Shown here one piece after another: positions 3,762 to 18,446 of a stretch of DNA of 22,758 nucleotides. Every line of letters starts with the position of its first letter. The first letter of the stretch is position 1. The stretch is taken from the UHGV virus genome UHGV-2149192. One strand, given 5' to 3'. The stretch comes from a virus. The position numbers and the translations under genes were made by a program. Under the pieces are notes generated by a model, which saw only the letters and a list, made by a program, of their open reading frames with translations, was not told the DNA's origin and made no database searches.

Positions 3762-3968
3762 TTATTCCTCATCTTCATCTTCATCTTCATCTTCATCTTC
3801 ATCTGCTGGTGCAATAACGTCATATCCTGCCTTTTCTGCAATAAACAGGAATGTTGAAAGAGTTCCTACAAGTTCATCGTCATGAACATGGCGAATGAAT
3901 ATTACTTTCCCGTTTTTGATGGTCAGCAATACTCTGGTTTGTTCGTGTTCTGCTGTTTTCTGATGCAT
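3762..3968 (-). CDS. Small acidic protein with C-terminal (ED)n tail (68 aa)
   Basis: Translation ends ...APADEDEDEDEDEDEE; the tail is encoded by a perfect hexanucleotide tandem repeat. Confidence 0.45.
   Translation of the reverse strand: MHQKTAEHEQTRVLLTIKNGKVIFIRHVHDDELVGTLSTFLFIAEKAGYDVIAPADEDEDEDEDEDEE
3768..3804. repeat. Hexanucleotide tandem repeat (TCATCT)x6 on plus strand, encoding the acidic tail
   Basis: Directly visible: tcatcttcatcttcatcttcatcttcatcttcatct. Unit length is a multiple of 3, so slippage would change tail length without frameshift. Confidence 0.9.
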
Positions 3969-5263: not shown

Positions 5264-5920
5264 TCAGAAAATATCCCACCTGGCATCAACCACAACACCT
5301 ACTATTTCGCAATCATTGTCCATTTCTATGATTGGATATTGTGGATTAAGGGGCTTTAGAAACGCCTTTCCCATGTCAGAAATATATTTTTTGAATGTTG
5401 CTTCATTGGTAGATTTTTTTCTGGCGATGACGTAACACCCTGAAAAAACTTCTTTATCTGGGTTGACAAGGATCGACATTCCTTCAGGAAATGTTATTCC
5501 TACGGGCGAAGTCATTGAGTCTCCGTGCACTTCCAGCCAGAACCCCCTCTCACCAGCGTATTTTACAGAATGCCTCCAATTATCCTGATCATACATGTTG
5601 TAGTCATCACCAGAAGTTGCGAATAATCCTGCCTGAACCCAGTTAATTACAGGGTAAGAGTGTGCTGTGTCTCTCTGTGGGCAGCTCTTAACATTATTTT
5701 CCCAATGCTTATCTTTTTCATCTCCGTTCTGAAGCCACTGCGGTGAACACCGCAGTGCAGCTGCAACTTTAAAAAGGGTGTCACCGTTGAAACTTTTTGT
5801 AAGGCCTTGCTCGGCTTTACTGATTGCAACTCTGGTGATCCCAGCTTTTTTAGCCAACGCATCTTGTGTTAACCCAGCTTTTTGCCGTGCGTTGATGAGA
5901 CGTTCACCTAAAGACTTCAT
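5264..5920 (-). CDS. cI: CI-type prophage repressor (N-terminal HTH plus C-terminal S24 LexA-like autopeptidase)
   Basis: Start verified at ATG 5918-5920 with GGAG upstream (ORF-track start at 5995 is an upstream in-frame Met). N-terminus KSLGERLINARQKAGLTQDALAKKAGITRVAISKAEQG is an HTH; C-terminal domain has the GDSM serine motif and a downstream lysine (ARKK), typical of LexA/CI self-cleaving repressors. Confidence 0.85.
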   Translation of the reverse strand: MKSLGERLINARQKAGLTQDALAKKAGITRVAISKAEQGLTKSFNGDTLFKVAAALRCSPQWLQNGDEKDKHWENNVKSCPQRDTAHSYPVINWVQAGLFATSGDDYNMYDQDNWRHSVKYAGERGFWLEVHGDSMTSPVGITFPEGMSILVNPDKEVFSGCYVIARKKSTNEATFKKYISDMGKAFLKPLNPQYPIIEMDNDCEIVGVVVDARWDIF

Positions 5921-5942
5921 TTTTCTTCTCCTCTCATGGCTG

Positions 5943-6014
5943 TTGATACTAAAGTAACAGAATTTCTTGATACTTTGGATTCCTGTGGTTAACATCGTTG
6001 GATAACAAAGTATC
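5943..6014. promoter_or_regulatory. Right operator cluster (OR-like): three operator-like repeats between cI and the rightward genes
   Basis: Sites at 5943-5958 (ttgatactaaagtaac), 5967-5978 (ttgatactttgg, identical to the 5229-5240 site) and 6001-6014 (gataacaaagtatc, near-palindrome). Confidence 0.5.
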
Positions 6015-6031
6015 TGGTGTGAGACTAAAGA

Positions 6032-6241
6032 ATGACCCTTTATGAAATATTAAAAATTCAATTTAAAACCAATGCCGCTATTGGTCGCAGGTTCCCAAAG
6101 AAAGGAAGGCCTCGTGGCAGTCAAGGTGTTGGAAAGTGGAAAACGCGAGGTGTTCCGGAGGATGTTGCCATTCTTTGTCATTTGGATCCGAGCATTCCAT
6201 ATACACACCCAAGCCTAGCGCACACGGAAGATGGGAAGTGA
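6032..6241 (+). CDS. Small basic protein in the cro position (69 aa); function unclear
   Basis: First rightward ORF after the OR-like cluster; Arg/Lys-rich (GRRFPKKGRPRGSQGVGKWKTRG) but no clear HTH and only a weak Shine-Dalgarno. Confidence 0.25.
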   Translation: MTLYEILKIQFKTNAAIGRRFPKKGRPRGSQGVGKWKTRGVPEDVAILCHLDPSIPYTHPSLAHTEDGK

Positions 6242-6311
6242 TGGTGGTGATATGAGCGAAAAAATAACTATTAAATACGATGGGACAACCATTTCGATTG
6301 CCCCGATCACA

Positions 6312-6605
6312 TTAGCGTTCGCTGAGAAGTTGTTGGTAAGCCTTAAAGGATGCGAACTGCATTCTACCTTCGGCATTGATTCCAATGCCTTCGCTTGTAC
6401 ACCAAGCGATGAACTCGGCTGTATCCGCTTCAACTTTAATAACTCGTTGCCCGCCTCTTTCGACACGCTTAATCAATTTTTCAGCGTCGTGTTTCCACTC
6501 GGTGTAACTGTCGGAGAGCACATCAGCATCAGTAAAAATATTTTTGAGCTCATGATACTGAATCGCATCGCGAAACCAGAATAAACCAACGGCCTGAACT
6601 TTCAT
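6312..6605 (-). CDS. Hypothetical protein (97 aa) encoded opposite to the rightward early genes
   Basis: ATG at 6603-6605 preceded by AAGGAGG with 7-nt spacing (strong RBS); no motif recognised. Confidence 0.5.
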   Translation of the reverse strand: MKVQAVGLFWFRDAIQYHELKNIFTDADVLSDSYTEWKHDAEKLIKRVERGGQRVIKVEADTAEFIAWCTSEGIGINAEGRMQFASFKAYQQLLSER

Positions 6606-6718
6606 GTCGAACCTCCTTTGGTTCTTTTGTTTATAGGGATCAAAAGGATAACTGAAGGAAGGTTCGGCACCAATAAGTACGAATGTGCGGAATCTTAAAA
6701 GAATTTATCCGTAAGGAG

Positions 6719-7432
6719 ATGGCAGTGAACACCGTAATTTTTAACGGCAAAGCATCCATGACCAGCCTTGAAATCGCAGAGTTGGTGGGCAGCCAACACA
6801 AAGATGTTAAGCGCAGCATTGAAAGGCTCATGGATAAGGGGATTATTCGAAGTGCGCCAATGGCGAATTTCGAAATAATCAACAACTTAGGATTAAAACG
6901 AAATGTAGGTGCTTACATCTTCGAAGGCGAACAAGGTAAGCGCGACAGCATCATTGTCGTCGCACAGCTCTGTCCTGAATTCACAGCTCGCCTGGTAGAT
7001 CGCTGGCGCGAACTGGAAGAACAGATCCGTAAGCCAATGAGCGAAATCGAAATGGTTGCCGCGATGGCTCTTGAAGCCGTTCGCCAACAGAAACGGATCA
7101 CTCAGGTGGAAGAAAAAGTCAGCCACGTTGCTGAAACAGTCGAGCAAATTAAAAAGGGCACTATTCGTGAGGGCTATGCCGGATATCGCCAACTGAAAGC
7201 AAAAACCGGTTTGTCAGATGATAAATGCCGCAATCTGGTGAACGCCTATCAAATTCCTACAGACACACATGAGTTCATGACGCCGGACGGATTGTTGTCA
7301 CGTCGCGCAATTGTTGCTGTGGAACCGTTTATGGCTGCTTTTTATCGGGTTATGGAGGAAGCAGAACCGCGAGGGACTCGCTGGTATCACCCGAAAATGG
7401 GGTTATTTCAGGTTATTGGTTGGCAGCGATGA
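6719..7432 (+). CDS. Rha-family phage regulatory protein (antirepressor-like), paralog 1
   Basis: N-terminal region TVIFNGKASMTSLEIAELVGSQHKDVKRSIERLMDKGII matches the Rha (Phage_pRha) N-terminal pattern. Start is ATG 6719 or GTG 6725; TAAGGAG at 6712-6718 is better spaced for 6725. Confidence 0.55.
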   Translation: MAVNTVIFNGKASMTSLEIAELVGSQHKDVKRSIERLMDKGIIRSAPMANFEIINNLGLKRNVGAYIFEGEQGKRDSIIVVAQLCPEFTARLVDRWRELEEQIRKPMSEIEMVAAMALEAVRQQKRITQVEEKVSHVAETVEQIKKGTIREGYAGYRQLKAKTGLSDDKCRNLVNAYQIPTDTHEFMTPDGLLSRRAIVAVEPFMAAFYRVMEEAEPRGTRWYHPKMGLFQVIGWQR

Positions 7433-7562
7433 AAAAAAGCCGGGAGTAACCCGGCTCACTCAACATCAATAACGGGGAGCTGTTTCGCATAAAACGGCTC
7501 CGAAACATCCAAGAACAGTTCTAAAGATATCAGCAGCTATATGATCATTTCAAGACCAAATA

Positions 7563-7591
7563 TTGATTCTGCAATTTCGGGACGTTACACT
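7563..7591 (+). promoter_or_regulatory. Sigma70-like promoter (TTGATT-17 nt-TACACT) inside a 60-bp block repeated at 8219-8247
   Basis: Hexamers at 7563-7568 and 7586-7591 with a 17-nt spacer; the surrounding 60 bp differ from the second copy by one mismatch. Confidence 0.45.
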
Positions 7592-7654
7592 GTCTCCGCA
7601 CCTTATAAAGCGGGTGCCGGGGGTCGCAGCCCGGAATTGCATACGGCGATATAC

Positions 7655-7674
7655 GACGCGCCAGCGTCTTTTTT
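7655..7674 (+). terminator. Intrinsic terminator-like hairpin plus T-tract in the leader of Rha paralog 2
   Basis: GACGC-gcca-GCGTC stem-loop followed by TTTTTT, about 65 nt downstream of the promoter-like element. Confidence 0.45.
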
Positions 7675-7840
7675 ATCGTCCGCGCTCACGCACGCCAGAA
7701 TTATGGTGGGCTGGGCAGGGGAGCCGAAAGGCTCGCCGGTTTCCGTATGCGCCGGTACTGCGAACCCTGTTCAGTCTGCCACCAGTGAGTTTCGCAGCTC
7801 CGGTGGTGGAAGTTATCCATTGCATACGGAGGCTGCCATC

Positions 7841-8203
7841 ATGGCTACAGTCCCAACTTCCCCATTCCTCAAAATTGAAGTTGTCAACGGCAAGGCCGTT
7901 ATTTTCTCCCTGCATGTTGCCTGCCACTTTAAGCGCATGCACCAGAACATCGTCGACAAAATCGAGTATCTGAACTGCTCACGCGAGTTTTTTACCCGCA
8001 ATTTCATACCGGGTACTTATCACATCTACGGTGACTCCCTGCGTGGTTATTACATCACCCTTGATGGTCTGATGATGCTTCAGCTTGGGTTAAGTCTGCG
8101 CACAATGCGGTACTACGAGAGCTGTATTGAAGCATTCCATGAGGCTGAAACCGTCCAGGGTCACTCCGCGTTCCGTCGTAATCAACGGGAGGTGCACCTA
8201 TGA
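7841..8203 (+). CDS. Rha-family phage regulatory protein, paralog 2 (short form; possible N-terminal extension from ATG 7541)
   Basis: ATG 7841 preceded by GGAGG (7827-7831); translation from here begins MATVPTSPFLKIEVVNGKAVIFSLHVACHFKRMHQNIVDKI, the Rha N-terminal pattern. The upstream 300 nt is open in frame but also open in other frames and contains a promoter and terminator. Confidence 0.5.
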   Translation: MATVPTSPFLKIEVVNGKAVIFSLHVACHFKRMHQNIVDKIEYLNCSREFFTRNFIPGTYHIYGDSLRGYYITLDGLMMLQLGLSLRTMRYYESCIEAFHEAETVQGHSAFRRNQREVHL

Positions 8204-8218
8204 TCCGCCACCAGCATA

Positions 8219-8247
8219 TTGATTCTGCAATTTCGGGACGTTACACT
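8219..8247 (+). promoter_or_regulatory. Second copy of the promoter-like element (TTGATT-17 nt-TACACT)
   Basis: Near-identical 60-bp block to 7563-7620. Confidence 0.45.
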
Positions 8248-8308
8248 GTCTCTGCACCTTATAAAGCGGGTGCCGGGCGTGGAAACCCGAAATTCAATAT
8301 AGAGCACA

Positions 8309-8329
8309 ACCGCGCTCATGCGGTTTTTT
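8309..8329 (+). terminator. Intrinsic terminator-like hairpin plus T-tract in the leader of Rha paralog 3
   Basis: ACCGC-gctcat-GCGGT followed by TTTTTT, about 60 nt after the promoter-like element. Confidence 0.45.
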
Positions 8330-8499
8330 CGTGTCATGAGCATCGTTACGCCCAAATTATGGTGGGGCGTGCAGGGCCAACTTCGGTTGGGCCGGGTTCT
8401 ATGTTGACCGGTATTTCCACCCCTGTACGTCTCACCACCTATATGGTCGTGGAAAGCCTTGGTGGTGAGTTCATTGAATTCAACATAGGGGCTGTCACC

Positions 8500-9051
8500 A
8501 TGACTACTCTCCCAACCCAATCTCACCCTGAAATCACGATTATCAATGGTCGCGTTGTCACCACATCTCTTGCAGTAGCTAATTACTTTACTAAACGGCA
8601 TGAGCGGGTTTTAGATAGAATTAGAAACCTCGAATGTTCCGCTGAATTTACTGAACACAATTTTGTGTTAAGTGAATACACCGACGCATCAGGCCGCAAA
8701 CTACCTTGCTATCAAATCACCCGCGATGGCTTCGCGTTCCTTGCCATGGGCTTCACTGGTAAACGTGCTGCCCGGTTCAAAGAGGCATACATCAACGCCT
8801 TTAACCTGATGGAGAAGAGTTTATCAGGTGCCGATACGTCTGATATGTCAGCTGTCGCACGAAACGCCAGAGGCGTATACCTGCATTTGCGTGAAATCCA
8901 TCAAATCTGGACAAGCCAGCTTTATCCAATGCTTAAGGCCGTTGAATCTCCGCTGGCTAGCAAACTGTACGACCGTGTTGGTGATGCTGTTTTTGGCGCT
9001 GCACTTGTTGATTCCAGGCTGAATGGTTCTGACAAGGAGGTTCGCCCATGA
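8500..9051 (+). CDS. Rha-family phage regulatory protein, paralog 3 (possible longer form from ATG 8200)
   Basis: From ATG 8500: MTTLPTQSHPEITIINGRVVTTSLAVANYFTKRHERVLDRIRNLECSAEF... is a clear Rha domain. An alternative start at 8200 has GGGAGG upstream and an ATGA overlap with the previous stop, so the long form cannot be excluded. Confidence 0.55.
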   Translation: MTTLPTQSHPEITIINGRVVTTSLAVANYFTKRHERVLDRIRNLECSAEFTEHNFVLSEYTDASGRKLPCYQITRDGFAFLAMGFTGKRAARFKEAYINAFNLMEKSLSGADTSDMSAVARNARGVYLHLREIHQIWTSQLYPMLKAVESPLASKLYDRVGDAVFGAALVDSRLNGSDKEVRP

Positions 9052-9242
9052 TTAGTTACGAAATCATCATCTCCACTACGGAATACAGAAACGATGTATC
9101 AGTTCGCACGGATGTATCTGTCTGGCACCGTCGCTATAAATCCAGAAAAACAGCGGAACTGAAAGCGGCAGAGATGTGTGAAACCATCTCAATGAAAGGT
9201 AGCCCGGTTAAATACGTAACTACGGCGGAGGTGCGTCCATGA
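9048..9242 (+). CDS. Small hypothetical protein (64 aa)
   Basis: ATG 9048 with AAGGAGG at 7-nt spacing; ATGA overlap with upstream stop. Confidence 0.45.
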   Translation: MISYEIIISTTEYRNDVSVRTDVSVWHRRYKSRKTAELKAAEMCETISMKGSPVKYVTTAEVRP

Positions 9243-9463
9243 TCCGCCACATCGTTAATTCCCTGTATCACCGATACAACCGTTGCCCCCGAGTGGGGCA
9301 GTGGTTTACCACCAGCAACGGCCTCGTTCTGCGGGTTTGCCTGGTCAATGCAGAAAGTCAGAAGGTTGTCTGCCAGGTGCAGGGGCGTACTTATACCCTG
9401 AGTTACCCGCTGGTGGCGTTTCAGTCCGGAAAAATGTTTAAGCGTCTGGGAGGTGTCGTATGA
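9239..9463 (+). CDS. Small hypothetical protein (74 aa)
   Basis: ATG 9239 with GGAGGTG upstream; overlaps neighbouring genes by 4 nt at both ends. Confidence 0.45.
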   Translation: MIRHIVNSLYHRYNRCPRVGQWFTTSNGLVLRVCLVNAESQKVVCQVQGRTYTLSYPLVAFQSGKMFKRLGGVV

Positions 9464-10386
9464 GTAGCAAGATCCTCGGTAATGTCTGGGATGCATGCGC
9501 AGCATATGGCGTCAAAGGTGCAAAACTGATGATTATGGCGCGCCTGGCTGATTATTCGAATGATGACGGGGTGTGCTACCCGGGTGTTGAAACCATATGT
9601 CGACAGCTTGGATTGGGAGAAAGTACAGTCAGAACGGCAATCTCCGAACTGGAGGCTGATGGCTGGCTGACGCGTCAGTCACGCCGCAAAGGTAACCGTA
9701 ATACGTCCAATCTTTATCATCTGAATGCTGATCGGCTTGAGCAGCTTGCCAGAACTGAGCGGGATAAGGTTGCAGAACTGAAACAGCAGCGCAGACTTTC
9801 AGTATTACGTGACCCTTCAGATTCTGAACTTTCAAAATCTGAACCGTCAGAATCTGTATGTTCAGGCGTGTTTGAGCCTTCAGATTCTGGCAAAAATACG
9901 CGTTTGACCCTTCAGAATCTGACTCCAGATCCACAAGGTTTAAAACATGAACCACCAGTAAATTCAAAACATGAACCGCAAGATATTGGCGCATCCGCTG
10001 ACGCGTCTGCACCAGCGCGTTCTGCCAGACAGGAATATTCACCGGAATTTGAACAGGCCTGGCAGGAATATCCCAAACGTGCTGGTGGCAATTCAAAATC
10101 TGCAGCCTTCAAAGCCTGGAAAGCCCGTATCAGGGAGGGAATAAAACCGGAGACCATGCTTGATGGCGTGAAGCGGTATGCCGCCTGGGTACGTGCTACA
10201 GGAAATACCGGCACACAGTTCGTGAAGCAGGCTGCGACGTTCTTTGGACCCGATCGTCACTTCGAAGATTACTGGCAACAGCCAGCCGCTCACGGAGGTG
10301 GGCGACAGCGACAGGTCGATGTCCTGGCTGGCCTGGGAGCCATGTCTGACAAATTCGGTAAATCCAGTAACAAATTGACATTCTGA
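9460..10386 (+). CDS. Phage replication initiator (O-like; N-terminal HTH, internal iterons)
   Basis: ATG 9460 with GGGAGG upstream; N-terminal HTH-like region; the gene body contains four approximately 13-bp iteron repeats, as lambda O contains ori; directly followed by DnaC- and DnaB-like genes. Confidence 0.6.
   Translation: MSSKILGNVWDACAAYGVKGAKLMIMARLADYSNDDGVCYPGVETICRQLGLGESTVRTAISELEADGWLTRQSRRKGNRNTSNLYHLNADRLEQLARTERDKVAELKQQRRLSVLRDPSDSELSKSEPSESVCSGVFEPSDSGKNTRLTLQNLTPDPQGLKHEPPVNSKHEPQDIGASADASAPARSARQEYSPEFEQAWQEYPKRAGGNSKSAAFKAWKARIREGIKPETMLDGVKRYAAWVRATGNTGTQFVKQAATFFGPDRHFEDYWQQPAAHGGGRQRQVDVLAGLGAMSDKFGKSSNKLTF
9814..9921. repeat. Iteron array (candidate origin of replication): four CCnTCAGAwTCTG repeats at about 31-bp spacing, followed by an AT-rich stretch
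   Basis: ccttcagattctg (9814-9826), ccgtcagaatctg (9844-9856), ccttcagattctg (9877-9889), ccttcagaatctg (9909-9921); each is near-palindromic. Followed by aaaacatgaacc x2 in an AT-rich stretch (about 9930-9975). Confidence 0.6.
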
Positions 10387-13378: not shown

Positions 13379-14419
13379 GTGAACATTCAGGCAGTAGACA
13401 TTTTTTGTGGTGCGGGGGGCTTAACTTTTGGGCTAAAAAAAGCCGGGATTGAGGTTTCTCATGGTATTGATATTGATGAATCCTGCCGTTTTGCTATTGA
13501 GAGCAATAATCCTTTAACGCAGTTCATTAATCAGTCAGTTACAGAACTGCAATCCTGCGATGTGTCTGCTATGTTCAAGGAAGGAAATATTAGATTGCTT
13601 GCTGGATGTGCTCCTTGCCAACCGTTTTCCAAGTATCGTAATCCAAATAGCCGTAAAGACGATACAAAGTGGCGTTTGTTATATGAGTTTCAAAGGCTTG
13701 TAAGTGATGTAATGCCAGAGCTTGTGACGATGGAGAATGTTCCTCAACTTAGAAACCATAAGGTTTTTGAAGGGTTTGTTAGTGCATTAAAGACTCTTGG
13801 ATATCATTTGTGGTACGACGTTGTAAGATGTTCTGAGTATGGCTTACCTCAAAATAGACGTAGATTAATTCTAATTGGTTCCCAATTGGGGCCGATCAGC
13901 CTTGATCAAAAAAAAGTTAGCCGTAAAGTTACTGTTAAGGATGCTATTGGTAGGTTGCCAAAAGTAGGGGCAGGTGAGAAGCTGGAAAGCGATCCCTTGC
14001 ATCGTTCGCCTAAATTGATGGATATCAATCTTAAACGAATCATGCATTCTTTACCTGGTGGTACGTGGGATGACTGGCCTGAAGAAATTAGAGCAGACTG
14101 TCATAAAAAGAATTCAGGTGCTACCTATAAAAGCGTTTATGGACGGATGGTTTGGGACGATACTAGCCCTACGATAACTACCCAGTGTTATGGATATGGA
14201 AATGGACGATTTGGCCATCCTGAGCAAAATCGCGCCATAACTTTGCGTGAAGCTGCGATTTTGCAATCCTTTCCAATGGATTATAAATTCCTTGACAAGG
14301 AGACGCCTTTTTCATTCCAAAAATTGGGGACAATGATTGGAAATGCTGTTCCCCCTATAATTGGTCAGATAATAGGGGAAACATTTATCAGACATGTTGA
14401 GGGGATAAATACCCGTTAG
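13379..14419 (+). CDS. DNA (cytosine-5)-methyltransferase
   Basis: Canonical m5C methyltransferase motifs in order: I DIFCGAGGLTFG (FxGxG), IV PCQPFS (catalytic Cys), VI ENV, VIII QNRRR, X GNAVPP. GTG start 13379 with GGAG 7 nt upstream. Lies in AT-rich DNA. Confidence 0.85.
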   Translation: MNIQAVDIFCGAGGLTFGLKKAGIEVSHGIDIDESCRFAIESNNPLTQFINQSVTELQSCDVSAMFKEGNIRLLAGCAPCQPFSKYRNPNSRKDDTKWRLLYEFQRLVSDVMPELVTMENVPQLRNHKVFEGFVSALKTLGYHLWYDVVRCSEYGLPQNRRRLILIGSQLGPISLDQKKVSRKVTVKDAIGRLPKVGAGEKLESDPLHRSPKLMDINLKRIMHSLPGGTWDDWPEEIRADCHKKNSGATYKSVYGRMVWDDTSPTITTQCYGYGNGRFGHPEQNRAITLREAAILQSFPMDYKFLDKETPFSFQKLGTMIGNAVPPIIGQIIGETFIRHVEGINTR

Positions 14420-15077
14420 AGGTAATATAATTTTCTGTTGAGTTGATTAATAAACGCAAATATAGATCAATTCTTTCTGACCTCGATTTGACTTCTTCTA
14501 AAGGGTCTATTTGACCTTTTTTAGAAAAGCTGGTACTTCCATGTGCCAGCTCATTTCTGATATCTTTAAGTAAATCTAAGTCAACACCATTTCTACACTC
14601 TGGTGAGTTTGCAACAGTTATTCCGTAAGCTTGTGTTATTTTGTGCAATACAGACTTGCAAACATTACCATTGAATTCTTTACGTATGTTTAATGAGGCT
14701 GAAATGATCCTTTTAGATATATCGGAACCAATTTTTTGATAAAGAGATTTTCCCGATTCATTATCTGAAATGATACGGTGCAAGATATTTACTTGGAATT
14801 TCTCCCTGAGTGATGCGTAATTTACTTCATTATCTTGCAAATGGTCATAAATTGACTCAATGCATCCTCTGGCAGTGTTTTCAACCTGATTGTACAGCAT
14901 CATGTGCACGGATGATTTTAAAATGTTAACCCTAAGGGTATTTGATTCTATTTCATCTTTATGCGTTTGCTGATCTAACTGCTGAGTCTGAGCCTCTAAA
15001 GATGACGCAAGAGAAAGCAATTCCATAATATCTCTTGCTCTTTCTTCGTATTCATCTCTTAAATCAATCAAACTCAT
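14388..15077 (-). CDS. HEPN-like protein (R-x4-H motif), downstream partner of the DUF262 gene
   Basis: ATG 15075-15077 with AGGAA upstream, 2 nt after the DUF262 stop (operon-coupled). Mostly helical, charged sequence with RNELAH near the C-terminus, matching the HEPN R-x(4-6)-H signature. Inference only. Confidence 0.5.
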   Translation of the reverse strand: MSLIDLRDEYEERARDIMELLSLASSLEAQTQQLDQQTHKDEIESNTLRVNILKSSVHMMLYNQVENTARGCIESIYDHLQDNEVNYASLREKFQVNILHRIISDNESGKSLYQKIGSDISKRIISASLNIRKEFNGNVCKSVLHKITQAYGITVANSPECRNGVDLDLLKDIRNELAHGSTSFSKKGQIDPLEEVKSRSERIDLYLRLLINSTENYITSNGYLSPQHV

Positions 15078-15079
15078 AG

Positions 15080-16237
15080 TTACATTCCTAATAATTTATC
15101 TTTGACATAAAATATTCTGTTTTTGAGTTGGCTGGTGTTGTTGGCACTATCAGCAGTAACTATGGTTTCAAATTCCTCCCCAAACAGCCAGTCTCCTACA
15201 GGAATAACCGGAGCCTGTAGATGTGGATTGGCTTTTAAGGCAAGAGCAGTTCCCACTGCTATGGCTTCGTATCTAGCACGGGGGGTGGTTTTGCTTGTTG
15301 GTGTCTTTTTAAACCCCATAGGGAAATGAGCATCTACAAAAGCAAGCATGCTTTCAAAATCATGTTTAAATTTGTCTACATCTTGTTGTGTGACCCTTTC
15401 GGCCTGAACATTAAGATAATTGTCAATAAAAGGAGCGACATAACCCTTATAATTTTCTAAATCATTTAAGTATGCAAAAAATCTCAAAACTAACTCACGA
15501 TGATCGCCATTCGAACGTTTCCGATCTGATAATGGAGCTAGACTAGCGAAAAGTGGATTTGTTGAGCAAGGAGTCACAACATCCCTATAGAAAATTGAAG
15601 TGGCCGCATCTGAACCATGTCTAACCTCCATCGCTTCCAGTCTCTTAACACCTGAATTTATTCTTTCGAATAAATCTCTTCTATGCTGCTCCTCAACATC
15701 ACCTTTCAATTCAATAAATCTTAGTGATGCCCTTAAAAATCGCCTCTGGCGGCTAGCCAAAAGATCTGAAAATTTGAAGCCCTCTAAACTTTTGAGTTCT
15801 TTTAAGTCTTTCAATTCAAACTGATTGTTCCAAAAGTAGTAAATTGAGCGAATCCTTTGTGAACCGTCAATAATTTCTACACGACCATCCAACTCAGGAT
15901 CTTCATTAAATACGTCGGAGATGTAGAGGTACGGGATTGGAAAATCTAATAATATACTTTCGATGAATCGAGAGGCTGTTTTGATATCCCATTTGTAATC
16001 GCGTTGATAATCAGGAATAAAAAGTTCGTTTTTGTCAGTTTCAAGATTATTGCCATACTTTTGTACAATTAATTCAACGGTCCATTCACGTACGTTGTAT
16101 CCAATATTTCTCTGAGCAAGCCTAATCTCGTTGTCGGCAGAAGTGACCAAGGCTGCAATTTCAGCTTTTTTTCTATTTTTCGCGTTTTCATCTTGAATCT
16201 GAGCAAGCTCTTCTTTGAGTTCTTTGAGTGTGGTCAT
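15080..16237 (-). CDS. DUF262 (ParB-like / GmrSD-N-terminal-like) domain protein
   Basis: Both DUF262 hallmarks are present: FIPDYQRDYKW and IIDGSQRIRSI (DGQQR-type). ATG 16235-16237 with AAGGAA upstream. No DUF1524/HNH-type C-terminal motif recognised. Confidence 0.75.
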   Translation of the reverse strand: MTTLKELKEELAQIQDENAKNRKKAEIAALVTSADNEIRLAQRNIGYNVREWTVELIVQKYGNNLETDKNELFIPDYQRDYKWDIKTASRFIESILLDFPIPYLYISDVFNEDPELDGRVEIIDGSQRIRSIYYFWNNQFELKDLKELKSLEGFKFSDLLASRQRRFLRASLRFIELKGDVEEQHRRDLFERINSGVKRLEAMEVRHGSDAATSIFYRDVVTPCSTNPLFASLAPLSDRKRSNGDHRELVLRFFAYLNDLENYKGYVAPFIDNYLNVQAERVTQQDVDKFKHDFESMLAFVDAHFPMGFKKTPTSKTTPRARYEAIAVGTALALKANPHLQAPVIPVGDWLFGEEFETIVTADSANNTSQLKNRIFYVKDKLLGM

Positions 16238-16654: not shown

Positions 16655-16750
16655 NNNNNNNNNNNNNNNNNNNNNNNNNNNNNNNNNNNNNNNNNNNNNN
16701 NNNNNNNNNNNNNNNNNNNNNNNNNNNNNNNNNNNNNNNNNNNNNNNNNN
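16655..16750. other. Run of 96 N (assembly gap or masked bases)
   Basis: Directly visible; content and true length unknown. Confidence 1.
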
Positions 16751-17926: not shown

Positions 17927-18002
17927 GGCCCTTTAGCTCAGTGGTGAGAGCGAGCGACTCATAATCGCCAGGTCGCTGGTTCAAATCCAGCAAGGGCCAC
18001 CA
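17927..18002 (+). tRNA. tRNA-Ile2 (anticodon CAU, ileX/ileZ-like)
   Basis: GGCCCTTTAGCTCAGTGGTGAGAGCGAGCGACTCATAATCGCCAGGTCGCTGGTTCAAATCCAGCAAGGGCCACCA: perfect 7-bp acceptor stem, anticodon loop CTCATAA, T-loop TTCAAAT, encoded CCA; closely resembles E. coli ileX as I recall it. Confidence 0.8.
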
Positions 18003-18009
18003 TCACATA

Positions 18010-18086
18010 CCGCCATTAGCTCATCAGGAAAGAGCGCCAGCCTTCGAAGCTGGTTGCGCGGAGTTCGGGTCCCCGAAGGCGGTCCA
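18010..18086 (+). tRNA. tRNA-Arg-like (anticodon UCG) with imperfect stems; possibly degenerate
   Basis: Cloverleaf can be drawn with anticodon loop CTTCGAA (UCG) and encoded CCA, but the acceptor stem has an A-A mismatch, the T-stem has an A-C mismatch, and the T-loop is TTCGGGT. Confidence 0.45.
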
Positions 18087-18099
18087 TTATCTGTATCCT

Positions 18100-18176
18100 G
18101 CGTTGTTAGCTCAGCCGGACAGAGCAATTGCCTTCTAAGCAATCGGTCACTGGTTCGAATCCAGTACAACGCGCCA
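18100..18176 (+). tRNA. tRNA-Arg (anticodon UCU)
   Basis: GCGTTGTTAGCTCAGCCGGACAGAGCAATTGCCTTCTAAGCAATCGGTCACTGGTTCGAATCCAGTACAACGCGCCA: perfect acceptor stem, anticodon loop CTTCTAA, T-loop TTCGAAT, CCA encoded. Confidence 0.8.
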
Positions 18177-18191
18177 CACTTATTTTCCCTG

Positions 18192-18215
18192 GCTCGCTTT
18201 TGCGGGCTTTTTTTT
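18192..18215 (+). terminator. Rho-independent terminator after the tRNA cluster
   Basis: GCTCGC-tttt-GCGGGC hairpin followed by eight T. Confidence 0.6.
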
Positions 18216-18411
18216 AAATGTCTCACAATTCAGGCGGTTGACTGTTGTCTGGTTTGCGGGGAGTTTGTTAAAAGAAACTGGCATGGTGAATCCCCCTGTG
18301 CGGAGGGGCAATCAGCGAGTAGGTATATGGGATAATCGCGGATTCAGGTGCTGGTACTGAATTCACCGGGAGGCACCCGGCACCATGCAATGGCACATAG
18401 CGCCACTCTCC

Positions 18412-18446
18412 AGCCCCTCTCCGGAGGGGCTGTTTATATTGATTTT
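18412..18446 (+). terminator. Second terminator-like hairpin (AGCCCCTC-tccg-GAGGGGCT) with T-rich tail
   Basis: Perfect 8-bp GC-rich stem followed by gtttatattgatttt; a related hairpin CCCCT-gtgcgg-AGGGG lies near 18285-18300. Confidence 0.45.

Follow-up and report, generated by a model that had tools for sequence, protein, structure and literature searches.

The C4 element is a trans-acting antisense RNA in the phages P1, P7, and P4 (PMC3632133, PMC8198154). IsrK and C4 are the counterparts of the seqA and CI RNAs of P4, and similar systems are present in P1, P7, N15, and some lambdoid prophages (PMC3632133). The present analysis deals with the viral genome UHGV-2149192, a stretch of 22,758 nucleotides (nt) referred to here as the window, in which two tandem units between positions 7541 and 9051 each lead into a gene of the Rha family. 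Each unit is very probably a self-contained IsrK-C4 antisense-RNA immunity cassette. The Rha gene whose 5' part houses the cassette belongs to the Bro network and lies within the early-right operon of a lambdoid prophage of E. coli. All the components are of a kind already known from the P1, P4, and Gifsy-1 systems, and none of them is new.

Two of these systems have been described in terms that bear directly on the locus. In P4, according to the portion of PMC10111431 that summarises Forti et al. (1999), the CI RNA is encoded within eta, which also harbours a constitutive promoter, and the transcripts from this internal promoter are terminated via CI/seqA interactions. The same portion describes Kil as a truncated in-frame product made on read-through, and full Eta as a product only of the upstream late promoter that is coupled to the alpA homologue, with the translation of Eta preventing termination (PMC10111431). 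In Gifsy-1, the IsrK promoter drives both the small RNA (sRNA) and a read-through mRNA. The latter is translationally silent until IsrK, acting in trans, activates orf45, whose first AUG lies at +107 and to which anrP is coupled (PMC4825925).

Architecture of the two units

The initial annotation had pointed to a repeated block of 60 base pairs (bp) upstream of both rha genes with a single mismatch, and this is indeed the case: positions 7561-7620 and 8217-8276 differ at one base only, C/T at 7597/8253. A repeat search of the window returned 7560-7673 and 8216-8329, i.e., 114 nt of 81% identity at a spacing of 656. The divergence around the repeat is equally real, as identity in the same register drops to 0.54-0.58 for the remaining leader and to 0.30 beyond it on both sides. 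The order of elements in each unit is a promoter, IsrK with the target sequences a1 and b1, C4 with the specificity elements b' and a', the downstream targets a2 and b2, and the Rha start codon. In each unit 24 nt separate the end of the IsrK-like sRNA from the 88-nt C4-type RNA.

The hexamers of the sigma70-like promoter proposed earlier (TTGATT-17-TACACT) are present in both units, 1 nt away from the position then implied. In unit 1 the putative promoter occupies 7563-7591 on the plus strand, the -35 hexamer TTGATT at 7563-7568 being followed after a 17-nt spacer by the -10 hexamer TACACT at 7586-7591. In unit 2 it occupies 8219-8247 (+), with TTGATT at 8219-8224, TACACT at 8242-8247, and the same spacer. 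The IsrK model begins 7 nt past the -10 hexamer of unit 1, and the predicted start site would coincide with the first position of the model.

A scan against Rfam, which had been suggested along with the earlier description, matched both isrK and C4 above the gathering score in each unit. The first IsrK-like sRNA (RF01394, gathering score 50 bits) is 77 nt long at 7598-7674 (+) and scores 57 bits, with a1 at 7623-7628 in the loop of hairpin 2 and b1 at 7638-7646. The second, likewise of 77 nt, lies at 8254-8330 (+) and scores 61.6 bits, with a1 at 8279-8285 and b1 at 8294-8305. Both matches span model positions 1-77, and both end in the hairpin terminators reported before, formed in unit 1 by a stem at 7655-7668 plus T6 (to 7674) and in unit 2 by a stem at 8308-8325 plus a T-run (to 8330).

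The C4 antisense RNAs (RF01695, gathering score 45 bits) follow at 7699-7786 (+; 80.4 bits) and 8355-8442 (+; 82.4 bits), each of 88 nt. The fold of the family consists of a long closing stem, two hairpins, and a single-stranded junction, where b' is the loop of the second hairpin and a' is the junction. Thus b' lies within 7737-7751 and a' at 7758-7764 in the first RNA, and at 8396-8407 and 8414-8420, respectively, in the second. The acceptor-like stem of C4 is followed by CCACC. RNAalifold on 18 C4 sequences including those of P1 and P4 recovered the fold of the family, and compensatory changes are seen at 15 of its 27 pairs. The second conserved patch that had been noticed in both leaders is genuine (7699-7720 and 8355-8377) and turns out to be the 5' flank and the 5' stem strand of C4 (RF01695). 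An AUG stands at the 5' end of each C4, at 7703 in unit 1, where it is conserved, and at 8359 in unit 2, in frame with Rha1 and Rha2, respectively.

Earlier, the leaders had been taken for either a short terminated RNA or a transcription-attenuation leader. The promoter, the short terminated RNA, and the control of Rha by the leader are retained from that view; the short RNA can be named IsrK since RF01394 matches above its gathering score in both units. Classical attenuation is not retained, and C4 had been overlooked; control would instead act through pairing of the C4 loops with targets at the Rha Shine-Dalgarno sequence, of which IsrK holds decoy versions, as in P1 immI and P4 immunity. 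A cis-acting attenuator or riboswitch, in which the hairpin and T6 are regulated by alternative structure, a leader peptide, or a ligand and no trans-acting RNA takes part, would agree with a terminator located 60-65 nt after the promoter, with a structured leader of about 167 nt beyond it. In comparison with shuffles both leaders are highly structured (z of -4.6 and -5.45), and the minimum-free-energy fold of leader 1 departs from the modular fold, which suggests alternative conformations. Nevertheless, this explanation is very improbable. The terminator is the 3' end of a family of free sRNAs, IsrK is a stable sRNA in Salmonella (PMC4825925), and the conserved element downstream of it is the trans-acting antisense RNA of P1, P7, and P4. 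No cis-regulatory Rfam family was matched even at E<=1; over 5900-9500 the only further match at this level was a sub-threshold c4-a1b1 at 8241-8293 (23.8 bits). ARAGORN likewise found no tRNA or tmRNA in the leaders, the only tRNAs being three at 17927-18176.

Pairing of C4 with its targets

The two C4 RNAs differ in their b' and a' sequences, and each is accompanied by matching targets. In unit 1 the downstream targets extend over 7791-7835 (+), with a2 at 7791-7797 and b2 at 7821-7835, where b2 covers the Shine-Dalgarno sequence GGAGG at 7828-7832. The b' loop can form a 15-bp helix with 7821-7835, i.e., over the Shine-Dalgarno sequence of ATG 7841, and 9 bp with 7638-7646 in IsrK; the a' junction (7758-7764) finds its complements at 7791-7797 and, for 6 bp, at 7623-7628 within the IsrK hairpin loop. 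In unit 2 the downstream targets extend over 8449-8491 (+), with a2 at 8449-8455 and b2 at 8480-8490, the latter overlapping a Shine-Dalgarno-like AGGGG at 8487-8491. Here the b' loop (8396-8407) pairs over 12 bp with 8294-8305 in IsrK and over 11 bp with 8480-8490 before ATG 8500, and the sequence GUGGAAA, present at 8279-8285 and again at 8449-8455, is complementary to the a' junction (8414-8420).

Within the window, the b'/b2 helix of unit 1 is highly significant against shuffles (P<0.0005), and the b' helices of unit 2 reach P of about 0.01-0.03 (b2 alone ~0.03). Cognate duplexes have energies of -32 to -41 kcal/mol in comparison to -22 to -30 kcal/mol for the non-cognate, cross-unit ones, and hence the two units look orthogonal. 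As a separate observation, the junction of the second C4 (8412-8421) is complementary over 9 bp to 7806-7814, a site that lies between a2 and b2 of the unit 1 leader (P 0.0065 before correction for 16 comparisons), which may be cross-talk or chance.

Further support for these pairings comes from other loci. When viral contigs were scanned for exact matches to the pattern of the shared 5' stem, 120 loci were obtained, which were reduced to 94 distinct units of 430 nt. These contain 43 distinct C4 sequences and 34 distinct b'/a' combinations, drawn from 26 loops and 11 junctions. As one loop occurs with different junctions, b' and a' assort independently. The offsets are constant in nearly all the combinations: b1 lies at -60 and a1 at -75 from the start of C4, a2 at +5 to +7 and b2 at +35 to +38 from its end, and b2 adjoins GGAG across the related units. 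The b'/b2 helix has a mean length of 11.0 bp for cognate and 6.2 bp for non-cognate pairs, the cognate target being the best in 24 of the 26 rows. In one length class the numbers of variants agree exactly among the partners (5/5/5 for a1/a'/a2 and 10/10/10 for b1/b'/b2), and in the same class the six pairing elements are about twice as variable as the remaining leader. The loops co-vary with the ribosome-binding site and not with the terminator, which is a further point against an attenuator acting in cis.

The promoter is conserved in a similar manner. In the same register upstream of the IsrK 5' end, 53 of the 94 units carry TTGATT-17-TACACT, 15 carry TTGAAA-17-TATAGT, and 10 carry TTTACA-17-CATAGT. 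The persistence of hexamers within otherwise non-homologous sequence is good comparative evidence for a promoter at this site.

The reading frame across the leaders

The same leaders are also open reading frames (ORFs). The in-frame extensions of 100 codons described before do exist (7541-7840 and 8200-8499), as the starts 7541 and 7841, and likewise 8200 and 8500, are in frame with no stop in between. The long ORF of unit 1, an Eta-like form that starts upstream of the internal promoter, runs from 7541 to 8203 (+; 220 amino acids, aa) and has the Phage_ASH domain at aa 16-107; the Eta-like ORF of unit 2 runs from 8200 to 9051 (+; 283 aa), with Phage_ASH at aa 15-111. The corresponding short forms are Rha1 at 7841-8203 (+; 120 aa), which contains only the Rha N-terminal domain (phrog_995, 3e-56) and stands in the position of P4 kil, and Rha2 at 8500-9051 (+; 183 aa), which contains Phage_pRha (PF09669 at 105 bits, TIGR02681, phrog_821). 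Rha1 and Rha2 share the Phage_pRha domain, and their matches to anti-repressor PHROGs are weak to moderate.

It could hence be argued that the leaders are merely an N-terminal 'Ash' protein domain of two Rha proteins, in which case the repeat would reflect protein conservation and the matches to RNA families would be incidental. The annotation is in line with this: RefSeq/PGAP labels 7541-8203 as 'ash family protein' and starts the second Rha family protein at 8200 (8200-9051). Pfam PF10554 (Phage_ASH, gathering score 26 bits) matches both extensions, at 60.1 bits in unit 1 (E 3e-16) and 35.7 bits in unit 2 (E 1e-8), and several PHROGs match them strongly. Across the 94 units the Rha frame is stop-free in 86%, compared with 0-17% for the other five frames, and it stays open across the promoter in 76 of 85 related units. 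The earlier remark that other frames are also open therefore holds for the window itself (7563-7973 on the plus strand and 8182-8601 on the minus strand) but not for the related units as a group.

The AUG of C4 is in frame with the gene ATG, with no stop between them, in 78 of the 94 units. In the class where the distance between these two codons is 138 nt, a column-shuffle null predicts about 12 stops and none is seen, a diffuse signal that is weakened by phylogenetic linkage. A similar signal in the 141-nt class was rejected as an artefact of one linked tetraloop codon (TCG vs CAA). Stop avoidance in the leader frame is hence no more than suggestive.

Even so, it is highly unlikely that the leaders are protein domains and nothing else. 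The leader has no codon-position periodicity (entropy is about equal at positions 1, 2, and 3), unlike the first 40 Rha codons, where the order is 3 > 1 > 2. The variation sits in the six short elements, which co-vary by base-pairing rules rather than amino-acid similarity; the stems carry compensatory changes; and the promoter hexamers are kept amid non-homologous sequence. The gene ATG is not in frame with the C4 AUG in five of the eight length classes, and one of the two signals of stop avoidance derives from a single linked codon. Moreover, the stretch recognised as Phage_ASH overlies the promoter, IsrK, and C4 not only in the window but also in P4, where the Pfam Ash model corresponds to Eta residues 22-146 and thereby spans isrK and the CI RNA, the immunity factor of P4 (PMC3632133). 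The idea that an obsolete 'cI protein' ORF of P4 had given rise to Pfam Ash as an entirely spurious family was dropped, as full P4 Eta covers the entire model.

The extension had originally been set against the RNA as an alternative to it. The extension ORF is real, but the eta/kil layout of P4 combines both, which suggests that there is no rivalry between them. Translation from 8200 across the leader would leave the function of the RNA standing, since both hold in the eta/kil arrangement of P4. The leader frame tends to stay open, yet the peptide is not conserved as a protein, and it seems that the act of translation rather than the peptide is what is kept.

Comparison with described systems and the proposed mode of control

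The layout resembles that of P4. On the minus strand of P4, Rfam places isrK at 8692-8615 and C4 at 8507-8420, and both lie inside one ORF (8767-8168) whose start (ATGATGATG) overlaps the stop of the upstream ORF88 and which covers the whole Pfam Ash model with residues 22-146. As in P4, a long ORF that begins upstream of an internal constitutive promoter spans IsrK and C4 and is in frame with a short ORF after C4. The start of the short ORF lies 55 nt past the end of C4 in both P4 kil and unit 1, and the start region of P4 kil (GGAGGCTGCCATCATGGCTACA) is identical over 22 nt to window positions 7828-7849. The a1/b1 and a2/b2 layout is shared, and so is the presence of a gene of the Bro/Rha network. 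The start of the long ORF overlaps the stop of the upstream gene (ATGA) in unit 2, as it does in P4, but not in unit 1. On the other hand, the gap between isrK and C4 is about 107 nt in P4 and 24 nt here, and the short product of P4 is Kil, a cell-killing protein of 65 aa, not a Rha-domain protein. P4 is also a satellite with one cassette over its replication operon, whereas two tandem cassettes occur here in a lambdoid early-right operon.

Likewise, P1 and P7 have a homologous C4 of the same Rfam family (about 82-83% DNA identity over about 53 nt), and the DNA similarity of the unit 2 leader reaches c4 of P1 and P7 as well as N15 and SfV. The annotated order in P1 is a1, b1, c4, a2, and b2, followed by icd-ant, with b2 11 nt ahead of the icd start. 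In P1 and P7 short loop sequences set the specificity and the downstream gene is a secondary regulator or antirepressor, and the same probably holds here. The region upstream in P1 differs, as it matches Rfam c4-a1b1 and not isrK, the window reaching only the 23.8 bits given above for c4-a1b1. P1 controls the small ORF icd with ant coupled to it, whereas there is no separate small ORF here and b2 lies on the Rha ribosome-binding site. Further, the P1 promoter is under a C1 operator, and none was identified at this locus.

Gifsy-1, too, is a lambdoid prophage, and its IsrK and C4 (STnc1160) likewise precede a regulator of the Bro network. Its isrK is at 34316-34240 and its C4 at 34214-34131, upstream of anrP, an ORF6N-domain gene. 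The first AUG of Gifsy-1 orf45 is equivalent to the one at the 5' end of C4, i.e., 7703 in the window. The ORF that starts there (orf45) ends at anrP in Gifsy-1 but is fused in frame to Rha in the window, and AnrP has an ORF6N domain and not Phage_pRha. The Gifsy-1 locus is a single copy downstream of Q, whereas the two copies here are upstream of the replication genes.

By analogy with P1 immI, P4 immunity, and Gifsy-1 isrK, the internal promoter would fire constitutively in the lysogen and most transcripts would end as IsrK. Those that read through would be processed, as by RNase P in P1/P7, to release C4, which would then pair with a2/b2, mask the Rha ribosome-binding site, and stop the translation of short Rha. 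With Rha translation blocked, the RNA would be exposed to premature (Rho-dependent) termination, which would keep Rha silent and insulate the downstream replication genes. IsrK, because it carries target sequences, could pair with the C4 region either in cis on the read-through transcript or in trans, and this pairing may tune or relieve the repression, as has been demonstrated in Gifsy-1. Translation of the long in-frame ORF would require transcripts that originate at the early promoter further upstream, with ATG 8200 of unit 2 coupled to the stop codon of rha1. Ribosomes that pass through the leader would render the expression of the long ORF insensitive to RNA immunity, as with P4 eta, a scenario that is certainly plausible for unit 2. 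There, GGAGG is followed by ATG 8200, which overlaps the rha1 stop codon (ATGA).

Alternatively, positive control of the Gifsy-1 type may dominate. The read-through mRNA would then be untranslatable owing to pairing of a1/b1 with C4 in cis, and free IsrK would open it so that translation starts at AUG 7703 or 8359 and runs into Rha. The components are the same as in Gifsy-1, and AUG 7703 lies about 106 nt after the modelled 5' end at 7598, close to the +107 of orf45. The in-frame, stop-free path from the C4 AUG to the gene in most of the units (78/94) is also in line with this. Further, in the minimum-free-energy fold of leader 1 (7598-7850), a1/b1 of IsrK pair in cis with b'/a' and the C4 fold is broken, like 'structure A' of PMC4825925. 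Against this, there is no recognisable Shine-Dalgarno sequence upstream of 7703 or 8359. The fold of leader 2 (8254-8510) keeps IsrK and C4 separate and C4 intact, and nine related units contain a short, out-of-frame counterpart of orf45. Of all the pairings, that of b'/b2 over the Shine-Dalgarno sequence of the downstream ATG is the strongest and the best conserved, which fits repression. A dominant role for positive control is hence unlikely, though by no means negligible, and it is compatible with an IsrK-C4 immunity cassette rather than exclusive of it.

Several points weigh against the interpretation of the units as immunity cassettes. RefSeq carries only protein-coding genes in this region and zero RNA genes. 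The promoter hexamers match only eight of the 12 consensus positions, for which reason a generic promoter scan does not return TTGATT/TACACT. The a' helices (6-7 bp) and the b'/b1 helix of unit 1 (9 bp) are not significant on their own against shuffles in the window, and the claim of pairing for these short helices therefore rests on the covariation across loci. The long ORF of unit 1 has neither a Shine-Dalgarno sequence before ATG 7541 nor coupling, being 108 nt from the upstream gene, which makes it doubtful that this ORF is used like Eta. Nor does an upstream ORF comparable to icd of P1 occur here. Finally, every step past the anatomy of the sequence is drawn from analogy, and the known models differ on the net sign, as IsrK of Gifsy-1 activates translation and C4 of P1 and P4 represses it.

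Tandem arrays, genomic setting, and significance

At least 80% of the two-unit arrangement is covered in 90 of 5426 complete E. coli genomes, and the arrangement recurs in the viral contigs L009, L037, L057, and L086. A further contig (L015, minus strand) has three units at 656-nt spacing. The units within one array always differ in b' or a'. The two Rha proteins of the window are 37% identical, and the cassettes of L015 and L086 encode 120-aa Rha N-terminal proteins that are 91-97% identical, although these cassettes differ in the C4 loop and/or the junction.

The second cassette appears to have been gained by recombination at a short linker. The coupling and recombination junction at 8188-8211 (+; GGAGGTGCACCTATGATCCGCCAC) contains a Shine-Dalgarno sequence as well as ATG 8200, which shares bases with the rha1 stop (ATGA), and a second copy of it lies at 9227-9250 (+), at the downstream edge of the inserted unit 2 and orf64 cassette. 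This 24-bp linker (GGAGGTGCNNCCATGATCCGCCAC), with its Shine-Dalgarno sequence, ATGA stop/start overlap, and codons for MIRH, is found a single time in a relative with one unit (L125, 3290-3315). In Stx2_EH2201, a single-unit relative, the end of rha1 is followed by the junction once (GGAGGTGCNNCCATGATCCGCCAC) and then by a small ORF. The gain of a cassette is suggested by this very difference, i.e., the junction occurs twice flanking unit 2 and orf64 and only once in the single-unit relative. No description of tandem orthogonal cassettes, or of the independent assortment of two specificity elements, was found in the searchable literature. The arrays of up to three cassettes with distinct specificities, the independent assortment of b' and a', and the gain at a 24-bp junction thus go slightly and incrementally beyond the described systems.

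Several E. coli chromosomes harbour a prophage to which the window is identical; FDAARGOS_1252 (NZ_CP069528.1, 1332558-1334258) is one lysogen that carries it. According to RefSeq, Pfam, and PHROGs, a LexA-like repressor gene on the minus strand is followed by a first Rha/Ant-like gene (6683-7432), unit 1, and unit 2, after which come two small ORFs, an O-like gene, a DnaC-like gene, DnaB, and Q. The gap separating unit 1 from the first Rha gene contains a strong minus-strand terminator (7437-7457; 8-bp stem plus T-run), preceded about 70 nt upstream by a minus-strand promoter-like site (7524-7553; TTGAAA-18-TATCTT with a TG motif). The pair (7437-7553) could yield a small antisense transcript; no Rfam family matched it. 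Farther downstream, a cytosine methyltransferase gene together with the minus-strand genes after it, a HEPN-like nuclease and a DUF262 gene (13379-16237; RefSeq names), looks like a defence-type insert downstream of the Q gene. Also downstream of the Q antiterminator gene, at 17927-18441, tRNAs Met-CAT, Arg-TCG, and Arg-TCT are followed by a match to the STnc100 sRNA (132 bits). Other features of the window include 95 masked N at 16656-16750 inside an ORF-rich region and a perfect hexanucleotide tandem repeat, (CATCTT)x6, at 3769-3805.

The interpretation as cassettes corrects the annotation, in that two IsrK-C4 cassettes stand where an 'ash family protein' is recorded without RNA genes. It also accounts for the repeat and predicts how two Rha regulators beside the replication genes stay silent in the lysogen. 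About 300 nt serve twice in such a cassette, as the promoter, two sRNAs, and their targets share one stretch with an open reading frame.

The tandem arrays may further represent a stack of orthogonal RNA immunity specificities, where each C4 'key' would act against another superinfecting relative or satellite that uses the same system, silencing its Rha or antirepressor gene. This is a speculative and, on balance, improbable proposal, raised by the finding that nearly the same 120-aa protein in L015 and L086 sits behind cassettes that always differ in b' or a'. The coupling of the long ORF to the preceding gene would add a possible second layer, by which the release of the first cassette would override the following ones. 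If the specificities are indeed stacked, an arms race would be recorded in b' and a', which are hypervariable and assort independently of each other (26 loops and 11 junctions among the 94 units).

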